Of a stretch of 64,000 nt of DNA, positions 13,101 through 55,420 are shown in pieces. The position numbers and the translations under genes were made by a program. The stretch's first letter is position 1. Each line of letters starts with the position of its first letter. Source of the DNA: Eledone cirrhosa (Eukaryota); contig OZ024741.1 in assembly GCA_964016885.1 (NCBI GenBank), positions 206,336,001 to 206,400,000 of the forward strand, in the 5' to 3' direction. Under the pieces are notes generated by a model. That model was not told the origin of the DNA. It ran no database searches and saw nothing but the letters and a program-made list of their open reading frames with translations.

Positions 13101-13170
13101 ATATATATATATATATATATATATATATATTAAGAAATAAACCAAAAGAAGCCTTCAATACATCAAAAGT

Positions 13171-13224
13171 CTTTATTAGCCAACAATGTTTCGTCCTATT
13201 AAGGACTCATCAGGGCAAGTAAAG
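13171..13224 (-). ncRNA. Minimal hammerhead ribozyme motif
   Basis: Minus strand CTTTActtGCC-CTGATGA-GTCCT taat AGGAC-GAAA-CAtTG-TT-GGCtaaTAAAG. Confidence 0.9.
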
Positions 13225-13415
13225 CTATAAGAAGCACTATCGGCCAATACAAGCCAAAAACTCAGAAGAATATGGAGTATACATACATTAAAGCATAGGA
13301 AAATTATCAAGTAAAAATTATCAAGTAAAAATTGCTAAGGAAGTGAATAACATTTTGAACCATATTATAAAGATAGTACAATGCAAAAGCTAAAGCTAAA
13401 CACAAGTGGTGATAT

Positions 13416-15268
13416 CTATCTATCTATCTAAGGCGGGTAAAATTCCCGAGTTCCATGGACGAGTCTCTCCAGCGGTCTCTGTCCCTCATTATCGCTGCCA
13501 TGTCCTGCATCTCCAACAGACCAGTGTCTGTCCTTAGGGCATCAACATACGTTAACCTTGGTCTTCCTCTTCTAGTGTGTCCATGTAGGGGCTCCCACAG
13601 GAGCACTGAGTGCAATGTCAACTCTGGATGTCGGTGAGCATGGCCAGCCAACCTCAGTCTCCTCTGTGTCACTTTTGAGCTGACTTTTGGGATGCTCCCA
13701 TACAGCTCTGAGTTTTTCATCCTCAGTGTATACTGATTAATGTTCAGAGCCATCCTCTGGATTCTCGTGTAGCACCCATCCACCATCTGAGTGAGTTTCT
13801 TGGTCAGTGTCCAAGTCCAAGACCCATACAGCAGCACAGACTCCACTACAGCAATGAAGAGGCGGATTTTCAGGTCTCTACGAAGGTCCGACTTCCACAC
13901 CGATCTCAAGCTGTGGCACGCCGCCCAGGCCTTGCTCTTCCTCTCAACCACATCATCCTCCGTATTCCCAATCTTTGCTCCCAAATACAGGAAGTCCTCA
14001 ACCAATTCCAGCGGCCTCCCGCCTACATTAGTGATCCCCTCTGGCTTCTCAACATTCTCTACCAGATATTTTGTTTTAGTCTCATTCATTCTCAGCGCCA
14101 CACTCATCGACACAGTCTCAACCTCCCGCATCAAATCCTCTGCCTCCTTCACTGTATTCGTCACCAAAACTATGTCGTCGACAAATTCAGCATCCGATAC
14201 CTTTTTCGCCCTAACTCTCCTGCTCTGAGCCGGTGCTACAGTAAAGCCAGAGTCCTGGTGTTTCTCCAGTGCAAGGCGCATACAATAGTCCACTACGATG
14301 ATAAAAAGGTAGTGAGGCAATATATCTCCCTGGAGCACTCCAGCCAGTATCTCAAAGAACTCTGTCATCCCATCAATGTGTAATGACTTGGGCTTTGGTG
14401 TTGGTGTAGAGCAGTGATATCAGGTCCACTTTCCTCTTGGGGATTCCATAAGCCTGTAAGATCTTCATCAGGCAGTAACGGTCCACAGAATCAAAGGCCT
14501 TCCCAAAGTCAATGAAAACCATGACCGCAGGCATGCACTTTGCTCTAGCTCCCTCTAATATCCTCATCAGCATCAGGATGTGACTGGTGGTTGATCTACC
14601 CTCTCTGAAGCCGTTCTGGTTGTCCCTGAGCTTCTTTTCCATCTCAGGCTGGATCCTGTTAAGAATCATCCTGTTGAGGGTCTTTGCCACAAGTGACGTC
14701 AGTGAGATCCCCTGGTAGTTTTTGGTGTTAGAGAGATCTCCCTTCTTTGGCACTGGGACGATGTTACTGATCCTCCACTGATTCGGAGCAACTCCTTTCT
14801 CCAGTGCCCCGTTACAGAACCCCAGGATGATATCATCAAATTCACACCTCTTCATCACCTCTGATGACACTCCATCTTCTCCATGAGCCTTGCCCTCCTT
14901 GATCCTCTTCTTGGCTCTCTGAAGCTCCTCTCTGGTGAAGGGCTCTGTCTCAACATCCAGTTCCTCAAACAGTCGCCTGATCTCCCCAGAGCTCTGGGCT
15001 GTGGAGGGTGGCTCTCCTAGTAGGGTCCTAAAATGGTCTAGCCATTTCCTCTTCCTAACCTCGGGCCCCGTTCCCTGGATCTTACTCGAACACCTCTTCA
15101 TCCCTGTGATCTGGTTGATGATCATCCAGCTCTCCTTACATCCAGATCTGTCAACCGCTCTCTCCACACTTCTGATCTTCTCTATCAATGCCTCCTCTCT
15201 GACCTCAGTGTAAGCGGTACAGAGCTCTTCCCTCATCACCTCCACAGTCTCCATCCTCTCCTCCGTAG
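13416..15268 (-). mobile_element. RTE-clade LINE, 5'-truncated
   Basis: RT motifs (QNGFREGRS, FIDFGKAFDSV, GVLQGD, FVDD, FLYLG) and an RTE-type C-terminus (RRLRLAGH..GRPRLTY); (TAGA)n tail; TSD AGTGGTGATAT at 13405-13415 and 15269-15279. Confidence 0.95.
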
Positions 15269-52355: not shown

Positions 52356-52949
52356 CCAATCCCATGGACAGCTCCCTTTAATATTACTAACAGTGATACT
52401 ATTACTACTCCACCTCCCCCATCACCCCCTTCTGTTTCGCCCACCGCCTCTCCGTCTTCCCTAGTCAAAGCCAACAGTTTAAACTGCTTCCACCACTTTT
52501 GGTAAGGCTCAGGTCAACACTAAGAGAGGAAGAAAGAAAACTACAGACAAAAATGTGAATTTTTCTCCCTAAATATGTATGTAAAAACTAAATTTTCCCC
52601 CATATTCTTATTATTCTTATTAATATGCAACTTAATTGCATTATACACTTCCGTCGTTGAAAAAGCTTTTAAGCTGAAACCGGTACAATTAAATGCGGAA
52701 ATCCGTATTTTGTAAATAAATGTTTTGATGTTATTCCGAGAGAAACTCCCTTTAGCATTCTCTACTGTCTTTTTCCTTCTTTTCTACACACACACACACA
52801 CGCACATACGCGCACACACACACACACGCACATACGCGCGCACACACACACACACACACACACACACACACACACACACACACACACACACACACACACA
52901 CACACACACACACACACACACACATATATATAGTAAAGAATCATCTGTA

Positions 52950-53535
52950 CTCTAGCAACATGCTAAAATAGAACACAAGGGTAAATTAGAGAACATAAAA
53001 ATAAAAATAGAATCTACAACACAGAAAAGACGCAATGTTTAGACAAATCACAGAGGCAATAAACATAAAAGAATTACAACCAAAATTAAATAGAAAATAT
53101 GAGTGGAACAGCAACATCACAACTTACAATTAAGGACAAAATGAAAACACACACACACATAGAACAAACAACCAACCAGTAACATGTAAATAAACAAATA
53201 TATAAATGAACATAAACACACACAGACACCCGGATGTGGCGCATGCGCAGACTGAGCACACAACACACACACAGAAACAAAATGGCGTAGGACAGAACAA
53301 AGGAGAGGCACAGAAACAAAGAAAGGAATCCCCAGTCACTGAAGAGGTCACAGAGTGTGTGACGAAAGAACTATGACAATATATAAACAACTATCTGGTT
53401 GTGGAACCAACCAACCAACCAGAAATTTATAAATTTATAAATTTATTATAAATTTATTATAATAATAAATTGAAGTGAAAGCAACTGGTGCGTGTGTTTC
53501 TTATTGGCAATATGACCCTCCCAAAGTATAACAAT
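52950..53535 (+). mobile_element. HHR-bearing repeat (HHR 53335-53377)
   Basis: GTCA-CTGAAGA-g-GTCACA gagtg TGTGAC-GAAA-GaaC-TA-TGAC; ends AATATGACCCTCCCAAAGTATA + (TA)n. Confidence 0.8.
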
Positions 53536-53644
53536 ATATATATATATATATATATATATATATATATATATATATAACTATGTATAAATTCATACATAAT
53601 ATATTTGATGATTATGTTTTTCAATATATATATGTATGTATATA

Positions 53645-55420
53645 TACAATTAACAACAAAGACCGCTTAGAACATAGGTATATCTTTAATTGCTAACAGT
53701 GTTTCGTCCACACTAGAAGTGGGACTCTTCAGAGCATAAAGAGTAAATACATAGTATACAAGCATTGACAAAACCAAAACAGAAGAATATATGTGGGGAT
53801 ACCATAAGTTGGGAGGAGTTTAAAGAGTAAAGTAAAAGGAGTAAAATAAGAAGAGTTAAATAAAAATAAAAATAAAAATAAAAATAAAAATAAAAAAAAT
53901 AAAAAAAAAAATAAAAATAAAAATAAAAAATAAAATAAAAAAAAAATAAAAATAAAAAAAAAATAAAAATAAAAATAATAAAAAAAAAAAAATAAAAAAA
54001 AAATAAAAAAAATAAATAAAAAAAAAAATAAAAAAAAAAATAAAAAAAAATAAAAATAAAAATAAAAATAAAAATAAAAATGAAAAATAAGAAATGTTAT
54101 CACAGTTGGGCAGGGTTCCGTTAACATACAGCTACATACAAGTATACGCATAAGCATGAGCACCCGCATGCACCTACACACAAGCACCCGTATGCAACAC
54201 ATACAGTATACACTAATACAAATAACATATCATAGACGGATGGGCACAAGTTAAGAGATAGAGATAGATAAAAAATAGATAAGAGGTAGATAAAAAATAG
54301 ATAAAAAATAGATAAAAAATAGATAAATAATAGATAAAAAATAGATAAGAAATATATAAAAAATAGATAAAAAATAGATAAAAAATAGATAAAAGATAAA
54401 AAATAAAATAAAATAAAATAAAATAAAGTAAAGTAAAATATACACCAGAAGATAAATAAAACAATACACCAAAAAAAATGGAGTAAAATATACACCATAA
54501 AGGAAGGTGTGGGTAAAGATAAGACTGGCAAGTGCATAAGCTATCAAGCTATGTTCAACAAGTGATATACGTACAACATATAAAATATACAAAAATATAT
54601 ACAAAAATATATATAAAAAATATATATAAAAGAGACGTATATATAAGGATATATATATATATATTTTTTATCTACCTCTTATCTATTTTTTATCTACCTC
54701 TTATCTATTTTTTATCTACCTCTTATCTATTTTTTATCTATCTCTATCTCTTAACTTGTGCCCATCCGTCTATGATATGTTATTTGTATTAGTGTATACT
54801 GTATGTGTTGCATACGGGTGCTTGTGTGTAGGTGCATGCGGGTGCTCATGCTTATGCGTATACTTATATGTAGCTGTATGTTAACGGAACCCTGCCCAAC
54901 TGTAAGTGATAACATTTCTTATTTTTCACTTTTATTTTTATTTTTATTTTTATTTTTTTTATTTTTATTTTTATTTTTATTTTTATTTTTATTTTTATTT
55001 TTATTTATTTTTATTTTTATTTTTATTTTTATTTTTATTTTTATTTTTATTTTTATTTTTTTTTTTATTTTTATTTTTATTTTTATTTTTATTTTTATTT
55101 TTATTTTTATTTTTATTTTACTCTTTTCTTATTTTACTCCTTTTACTTTACTCTTTAAACTCCTCCCAACTTATGGCATCCCCACATATATTCTTCTGTT
55201 TTGGCTTTGTCAATGCTTGCATACTATGTATTTACTCTTTATGCTCTGAAGAGTCCCACTTCTACTAGTGTGGACGAAACACTGTTAGCAATTAAAGATA
55301 TACCTATGTTCTAAGCGCTCTTTGTTGTTAATTGTATTACGGCTCTGTCCTCTGACATTGAGCTAACCATATACTGCCTATTTGATAAGTGGAGTGTAAC
55401 ACACTCCCAATTCTCTCCCT
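53645..55420. mobile_element. Large asymmetric foldback HHR element
   Basis: 53645 to about 54300 inverted against about 54700-55337; HHRs at 53684-53741 (-) and 55237-55297 (+); tail 55338-55420. Confidence 0.9.
55237..55297 (+). ncRNA. Minimal hammerhead ribozyme motif
   Basis: CTTTATGCT-CTGAAGA-GTCC CACT tctact AGTG t GGAC-GAAA-CAcTG-TT-AGCAatTAAAG. Confidence 0.9.

Follow-up and report, generated by a model that had tools for sequence, protein, structure and literature searches.

A 64,000-nt stretch of the Eledone cirrhosa genome (GenBank assembly GCA_964016885.1, contig OZ024741.1, positions 206,336,001 to 206,400,000 of the forward strand; the window) contains foldbacks that are 5'-truncated pairs of pseudo-long terminal repeats (pseudo-LTRs) from several (TA)n-targeting Penelope-like families. 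Throughout the genome, copies of every family were found to end at one of two places, either just before a small bulged hairpin (site 1) or at the end of a tail (site 2). A second hairpin of the same form starts a few bases past the tail end and is seen only in copies that read on into the open reading frame (ORF). With one hairpin at each, both end sites follow a single rule. On the strength of the genomic ends and their pairing, we propose that each hairpin probably anchors one reverse transcriptase (RT), which would start internally on the RNA, with one of the two strands of (TA)n, cut in staggered fashion, as its primer.

End sites and hairpins

The window holds loci of family A (13-17 kb), B (53-55 kb), C (27 kb), D (4.8 and 35 kb) and F (8.8 kb), and also of families E, G and H. 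The outer part of the family A tail-less arm (13129-13415, minus strand) was delimited by self-BLAST and by its junction, and ends at site 1 in a TA run at 13099-13130; the arm is interrupted by an inserted RTE-like fragment of a long interspersed nuclear element (LINE; 13416-15268, minus strand) and resumes at 15269. The foldback body and tail-bearing arm extend from 15269 to 17452, with a palindrome at 15301-17001 and a site 2 end in the TA run at 17453-17488. On the plus strand this arm carries a type I hammerhead ribozyme (17265-17307; Rfam RF00163, 34.1 bits, gathering threshold 34), site 1 (17351-17353, a junction interval 6-8 nt before hairpin 1) and hairpin 1 itself (17360-17381), which has a 4-bp base stem, a TT bulge and a 3-bp upper stem and is present in the minimum free energy structure (z -2.0). 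In family C a tail-less arm (27001-27185, minus strand; site 1 end in the TA run at 26937-27002) adjoins a tail-bearing arm with a hammerhead-like core (27186-27464, plus strand; site 2 end in the TA run at 27463-27522), and hairpin 1, with a TC bulge, lies at 27381-27400 (plus strand). The family B pair consists of a tail-less arm ending at site 1 (53644-54357, minus strand) and a tail-bearing arm (54649-55427, plus strand) with a hammerhead core at 55246-55280, hairpin 1 at 55342-55363 (plus strand) and a site 2 end at 55420-55427. Family D is represented by two minus-strand copies, one tail-less (4794-4970; site 1 end in the TA run at 4778-4797) and one tail-bearing (34883-35155; hairpin 1 at 34971-34945, site 2 end in the TA run at 34813-34882).

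Ungapped arm-to-arm extension placed the last base common to both arms at 17353 in family A, 27375 in family C and 55337 in family B, leaving gaps to the hairpin of 6, 5 and 4 nt, respectively. These are exactly the ends given in a first-pass annotation of the window, made from the letters alone, which had claimed that sister copies stop 4-6 nt before the hairpin; its family D end was consistent with a reading of the printed strands, in which the match of the 4.8 kb to the 35 kb copy runs to ~34977, with a gap of 5. The three exceptions that it had named, at 8.8 kb, 25 kb and 692, also exist. The short arm of the family F foldback (8801-8966, strandless, made of a 257-nt non-autonomous unit; hairpin 1 at 8894-8917, plus strand) ends 30-33 nt early. 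The tail-less arm of the family H foldback (25086-25289, strandless; mutated hairpin 1 at 25152-25134, minus strand) ends 14 nt early and adjoins an (ATCT)n array. In a decayed copy with a same-type hairpin with a TA bulge (659-680, plus strand) the sequence stops just beyond the hairpin, an end that was not mapped to a family reference.

Mapping of 3' junctions in copies from across the genome, in the manner of the check proposed with that annotation, gave sharp peaks before the hairpin. Because gaps and subfamily variants distorted the raw ends of local alignments, junctions were remapped. The sample comprised 279 arms of families A, B, C, D and F, from which 12 read-through arms were excluded to leave 267; families I and E, whose queries contain TA runs, were excluded from end mapping. 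Of the 267 terminal arms, 254 had their ends at most about 10 nt 5' of a hairpin of the form RCTC-stem-TN-GAGY. The modal intervals of the true site 1 junctions were 6-8 nt (A), 4-7 nt (B), 5-7 nt (C), 5-10 nt (D) and 5-8 nt (F), and all contain 6-7. A short fixed gap thus stands, but its value is ~6-7 nt rather than 4-6 nt: the smaller figure marks the edge of maximal homology, and the true junctions occupy wider intervals because of TA microhomology. A TA is conserved at -8 to -5 from the hairpin and every modal junction overlaps T or TA, so the rule retains an element of short TA pairing.

The two peaks recurred, with a few outliers, among 38 arms drawn from 664 kb of unselected DNA, in which the hairpin motif with an upper stem of at least 3 bp had 51 matches compared with 4-9 in each of five shuffles. 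Early ends were under-sampled in loci L001-L030 because a tail-containing query was used. A scan for further families returned 59 clusters, among them chance matches, second hairpins and readings of the antisense strand; offsets were taken only from clusters whose tail-less arms had been mapped, and were 4-7 nt (5 of 8 arms) and 6-9 nt (3 of 5 arms). Family H had a mode of 5-6 nt and an additional group at 12-17 nt.

At site 2 the distance from the tail end to hairpin 2 was 6-7 nt in family A, 6-13 nt in family B and 7-9 nt in family C, with a second register of 3-6 nt in the last; hairpins 1 and 2 are spaced 78-100 nt apart. Hairpin 2 was then predicted for families D and F and searched for in 3.0 Gb of the genome, where reversed-pattern controls gave no matches. 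Five of the six family D matches were read-through copies with hairpin 2, four of them continuing into the beginning of the ORF and one internally deleted soon after, and the sixth came from a family F hairpin preceded by a TA run. The single family F match was a tandem of 257-nt units with both hairpins; no hammerhead core was seen in it or elsewhere in this non-autonomous family. Family F is very abundant, and one locus (L247) consists of an inverted site 1 arm, three 257-nt units and a site 2 end. A copy that ends at site 2 lacks hairpin 2, the very structure that defines that end, and hairpin 2 must therefore exert its effect in the template. Of the two sources first suggested for the tail-bearing arm, a second priming is supported by tail ends lying 3-9 nt before hairpin 2, and a template jump is not needed.

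If ends merely fell where the element shares TA microhomology with its target, the hairpin would be incidental. Each modal junction does overlap 1-7 nt of TA/AT microhomology. However, each family has 19-29 TA/AT sites between the hammerhead and hairpin 2, of which only two are used, and site 2 of family A has just 1 nt of microhomology. The longest decoy, a 9-nt TA stretch 57 nt before hairpin 1 of family C, was the end of 8 copies as against 4,248 that read on, as counted with exact genome-wide patterns, and about half of those have their end at a site whose microhomology amounts to 2 nt. The decoy count refutes this explanation, which we regard as having almost no chance of being correct. 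Junctions were therefore neither uniform nor attributable to TA microhomology alone, the two outcomes against which the first-pass rule had been set. That the hairpin acts as a ruler for the RT start is what we infer for this clade from junctions that are sharply peaked before it and for which TA microhomology is no sufficient cause.

Pairing of the ends and relatives of the hairpin

Among family C inverted pairs in a chromosome-order sample, 37 of 38 had one site 1 and one site 2 end (P = 1.4e-10 against 50:50), and the lone exception (L284) is without a TA flank on one side. Automatic calling in five families gave 101 one-of-each pairs out of 109, with six site 1/site 1 and two site 2/site 2 pairs. 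Inspection of these eight showed that three of the six site 1/site 1 calls were tailed arms with variant or deleted hairpins, and the totals became 104, 3 and 2. In six of 21 apparent singles there proved to be a short inverted piece with its start exactly at site 2, consisting of tail alone in three cases; in the remainder TA was joined directly or the structure was not resolved.

Such strict pairing points to one RNA or an asymmetric complex, because independent RNAs would pair randomly and give half same-type pairs. It thereby bears on a scheme in which the RNA is cut 5' of each hairpin, by an element protein or a host nuclease, and priming then initiates at the ends of the two resulting RNAs. 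The same two genomic ends would be expected, and in the Poseidon element studied by Frangieh 2024 (PMC11167929; this and the other papers cited are represented by the parts available to us) RNA-seq read ends fall on the start sites. Two RNA pools are nevertheless difficult to reconcile with 37 one-of-each pairs in 38, and the available part of the same study reports that the Poseidon product size in vitro was unchanged with the template 3' end. We consider RNA cleavage improbable.

The longer arm was the site 2 arm in 11 of 46 pairs and the site 1 arm in 9, and the arms were near-equal in 26; lengths of long arms are approximate, as alignments break in simple repeats. Many equal-armed family C foldbacks have at their centre a natural inverted repeat located ~170-185 nt upstream of the anchor (27170-27215 in the window, and others), likely a preferred stop and join point. 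Near-equal arms, frequently centred on a local inverted repeat, and the near identity of short arms could also reflect snap-back, in which a cDNA primed at the tail end folds back and the second arm is copied from DNA until it stalls before hairpin 1; self-priming has been proposed for palindromic junctions (PMC3846280). Snap-back predicts a tail-less arm that is never the longer one. It is longer in the 9 pairs above and in 6 more structures with short or tail-only partners, and fold-back of a single cDNA cannot, short of later recombination, account for a long tail-less arm next to a tail-only one. Full-length direct copies also end at site 1 without a foldback. Snap-back is accordingly a very unlikely source of these pairs.

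Flanks with informative non-TA bases were available for 11 of the 46 pairs, and exact target duplications measured 14 nt in five, 15 nt in one and 11 nt in one; the family B pair in the window has a 12-nt exact duplication. As in twin priming by LINE-1, inversions were thus accompanied by a target duplication lying outside the two 3' ends, with 14-15 nt in 6 of the 11. Strict pairing and near-identical arms are consistent with both nicks priming on one RNA, although later homogenisation could also make arms alike.

More distant relatives were found in marine metagenomes with an alignment query; a single-protein query gave none. The set comprised 78 loci (L324-L401) with 32-40% protein identity, grouped into 60 families that are themselves related, and the counts are not independent events. 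A strict hairpin was present in 30 of 47 families with enough upstream DNA, and two hairpins in 8, compared with 0 of 141 ORF windows and 12 of 2,350 shuffles. When the motif was defined by sequence only, with no stem filter, upper-stem positions 1-3 of 80 distinct hairpins were paired in 78 of 80, 53 of 76 and 35 of 47 cases, exceeding all 2,000 partner shuffles (maxima 68, 43 and 29), and C-G and T-A were exchanged at position 1. A TA started at -6 in 36 of 77 hairpins against a background of 9%, with shoulders at -8 and -7. The three bases past the hairpin were ACT in 49 of 56, the first two having been pre-selected as RC, CT or TC. Fifteen repeated-context rows were obtained from the metagenome contigs, and the five flagged as TA-flanked had maximal-homology gaps of 0, 3, 5, 7 and 8. 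By eye, the motif is visible in three of the six consensus sequences newly given for Hydra elements in the PMC8557442 supplement (coral, sea cucumber), including Hydra-1_Ajap with both hairpins before the ATG; among the others are one near variant and one without the region.

Proposed twin priming and its rivals

In the proposed mechanism the endonuclease would cut both strands of (TA)n ~14 nt apart and leave TA-repeat 3' overhangs, each of which would pair with the UA just 5' of one hairpin. Two hairpins acting as two start points, one per cut strand, would explain the one-sided tail, as the cDNA started at site 1 would exclude the tail and the cDNA started at site 2 would carry it. Both cDNAs would likely be made from one RNA, with the trailing enzyme displacing the first cDNA, and their ends would be joined head to head, in many cases where there is a local inverted repeat. 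Use of only one site would yield a non-inverted copy. By analogy, the Poseidon study lends support in kind to these steps: with the Anolis carolinensis element PAc in vitro, both strands were cut and extended, two internal starts matched the genomic ends and downstream RNA was needed, and a dimer was predicted (PMC11167929). The N-terminal 480 residues of the family C protein, modelled as a homodimer without an alignment, scored 0.00, a result counted neither way.

The main rival is that both ends are endonuclease cuts in a DNA intermediate, with the motif read in DNA and a TA cut 6-7 nt upstream during resolution. Endonuclease-mediated resolution is the origin given for the tail in Craig 2021 (PMC8557442), the conserved TA at -6 fits a TA-specific nuclease and primer pairing equally well, and the direction of G-U pairs leaves undecided which strand folds. 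By contrast, the compensatory pairs favour a single-stranded fold, tail-only inverted pieces and structures in which either arm is the longer follow simply from two primed cDNAs, and Poseidon genomic ends coincide with measured RT starts (PMC11167929). We judge DNA cutting to be unlikely.

Several observations weigh against hairpin-anchored RT starts. Genomic ends alone cannot separate an RT start from a cut in RNA or DNA. The ends of 13 of the 267 arms lie elsewhere, the mapped interval contains 6 or 7 nt in only 194 of the 267, and most loci were selected by similarity to the window copies. Five of the 109 pairs are still same-type after inspection, and 4 of the 11 informative flanks have no exact duplication. 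In family E (hairpin 1 at 8645-8670, plus strand, with a second copy at 8038-8063; tail end ~8747 in a TA run) no clear second hairpin was seen. Family G (47010-48002; hammerhead cores at 47739 and 47342) has two end sites ~55 nt apart without the canonical hairpin, each followed within 5 nt by CGTC. The hairpins fold as drawn with only modest stability (z -0.8 to -2.1; whole tails -0.05 to -1.5), which suits a protein-binding motif better than a physical block. The strict motif is absent from 17 of the 47 metagenome families and none was seen by eye in the Hydra-1_Obim consensus (PMC8557442); nor was the RCTC..GAGY motif seen by eye in the Poseidon template given in the available part of PMC11167929, so that it is clade-specific at best.

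A fuller account, for which we find the case evenly balanced, is programmed twin priming: one RNA would carry two ~20-nt protein-binding hairpins, each loading one member of an enzyme pair that cuts (TA)n with a 14-nt stagger, and copying on both strands would start 6-7 nt upstream of the respective hairpin. The hairpin and UA would then be a portable signal, sufficient for mobilising the 257-nt element without a hammerhead core, and the mechanism would be the general cause of the inverted, one-tailed Penelope architecture.

Clade, neighbouring elements and known systems

Full units elsewhere in the genome have the order hammerhead, tail, ORF, and the ORF contains RWR, DKT, a CxCX5C linker and a C-terminal nuclease without CCHH. 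Pseudo-LTRs occur in direct and inverted arrangement around one ORF, with the tail at a single end (L151-L153, L162, L166, L171, L301). RWR (an RWK-like motif) and DKT (replacing DKG) are present in families B, C and D; the CxCX5C linker and the nuclease core without CCHH, with CxxC and CxH around a conserved E and N, are present in families A, B and C, the family A copy L156 being without the C of CxH. A Pfam scan of three Hydra-type ORFs recognised no families, but RT and IVY..YIG motifs are visible in the protein alignment, which by eye matches published Hydra proteins. The closest named protein relatives are from Argonauta hians. The traits given for the Hydra clade in PMC8557442 are those protein motifs, hammerheads, (TA)n targets and a generally small size (<3 kb, typical rather than absolute). 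Insertion into (TA)n is shared by the present families. The Rfam hammerhead model matched in family A only, and families B, C and D have the core pattern only. Unit lengths of ~4.0 kb (C), 4.8 kb (A) and 5.3-5.9 kb (B), which result from long 3' untranslated regions, are above the size typical of the clade. Going by the protein motifs, we assign these families to the Hydra clade of Penelope-like elements. A foldback or miniature inverted-repeat DNA transposon was rejected because the ends differ by the tail, the arms are variably 5' truncated and full units encode RT. Asparagine-rich inserts occur between the RT thumb and the nuclease in L151, L152 and L156 (families A and B); inserts of a like kind are described for rotifer Penelope elements (PMC3846280).

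A second Penelope-type ORF of a different type, with RVT_1 and GIY-YIG matches and a cysteine linker, lies at 21669-23393 (minus strand). It has a partial inverted copy at 11533-13104 that ends at the TA run at 13099, and no hairpin motif of the present kind was seen at its end. A Mariner-like DNA transposon with inverted ends (3027-3988) adjoins a TA run. Different TA-targeting families lie repeatedly in each other's TA flanks, forming nested clusters (13099 and 8769-8798 in the window; L053, L073, L117, L144 and L166). At L154, 11 hammerhead cores are arranged in tandem with ~310-nt spacing (6757-9882, minus strand) in a retrozyme-like manner.

Internal initiation at two tail-flanking sites has already been published for one Poseidon element (PMC11167929), and inverted pairs with a one-sided tail are already known (PMC8557442, PMC3846280), their origin in Penelope-like elements being called unresolved in PMC8557442 and PMC11167929. 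Our literature search, with most subscription journals outside its coverage, found no report of a duplicated hairpin, a fixed offset, one-of-each pairing or a 14-nt duplication. PAc resembles the present families in having two internal RT starts that bracket the tail, use of both strands, AT-rich targets, an upstream hammerhead and a need for downstream RNA. It belongs to another clade, its tail is 30-40 nt rather than 78-100 nt and its start is placed inside an AC-rich stem loop; the available part of PMC11167929 reports neither a duplicated hairpin, a fixed offset, one-of-each pairing nor duplication length, and its supplementary figures may show structure near the starts. The published Hydra clade (PMC8557442) shares the protein motifs, hammerheads, (TA)n targets, inverted 5' copy and single-end tail. 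The differences are that the tail is there put down to endonuclease resolution, target duplications are called hard to discern and units are <3 kb rather than 4-6 kb; the available main text contains neither of the words hairpin and stem-loop. Penelope elements of Adineta vaga (Arkhipova 2013, PMC3846280) likewise have inverted pseudo-LTRs with a tail on one, target duplications and trans mobilisation by pseudo-LTR sequences, but with duplications of 8-10 bp rather than ~14 nt, a self-priming account and, in the part available, no hairpin rule.

The covarying duplicated hairpin, the strict pairing and the 14-nt duplication make the question of the tail addressable by mutagenesis, and the hairpin provides a short signature in sequence by which these elements, as well as their non-autonomous passengers, can be located and their limits set. 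In LINE-1 twin priming cDNA is primed from both strands of the target, and the outcome is an inversion that a target duplication flanks, but the annealing of the second primer, upstream, is opportunistic and the arms have hardly any overlap. In the present families the two starts would instead be set 78-100 nt apart by RNA structure, and each arm is a duplicate of the other. Penelope-like elements are the closest retrotransposon kin of telomerase, in which a structure bound by a related reverse transcriptase sets the register of an internal template with short primer pairing. If the proposal is correct, the hairpin would be a minimal RNA signal for an internal, site-defined cDNA start. In telomerase the boundary element is situated 5' of the template and determines the stop, whereas the hairpin described here lies 3' of the template and is proposed to set the start.

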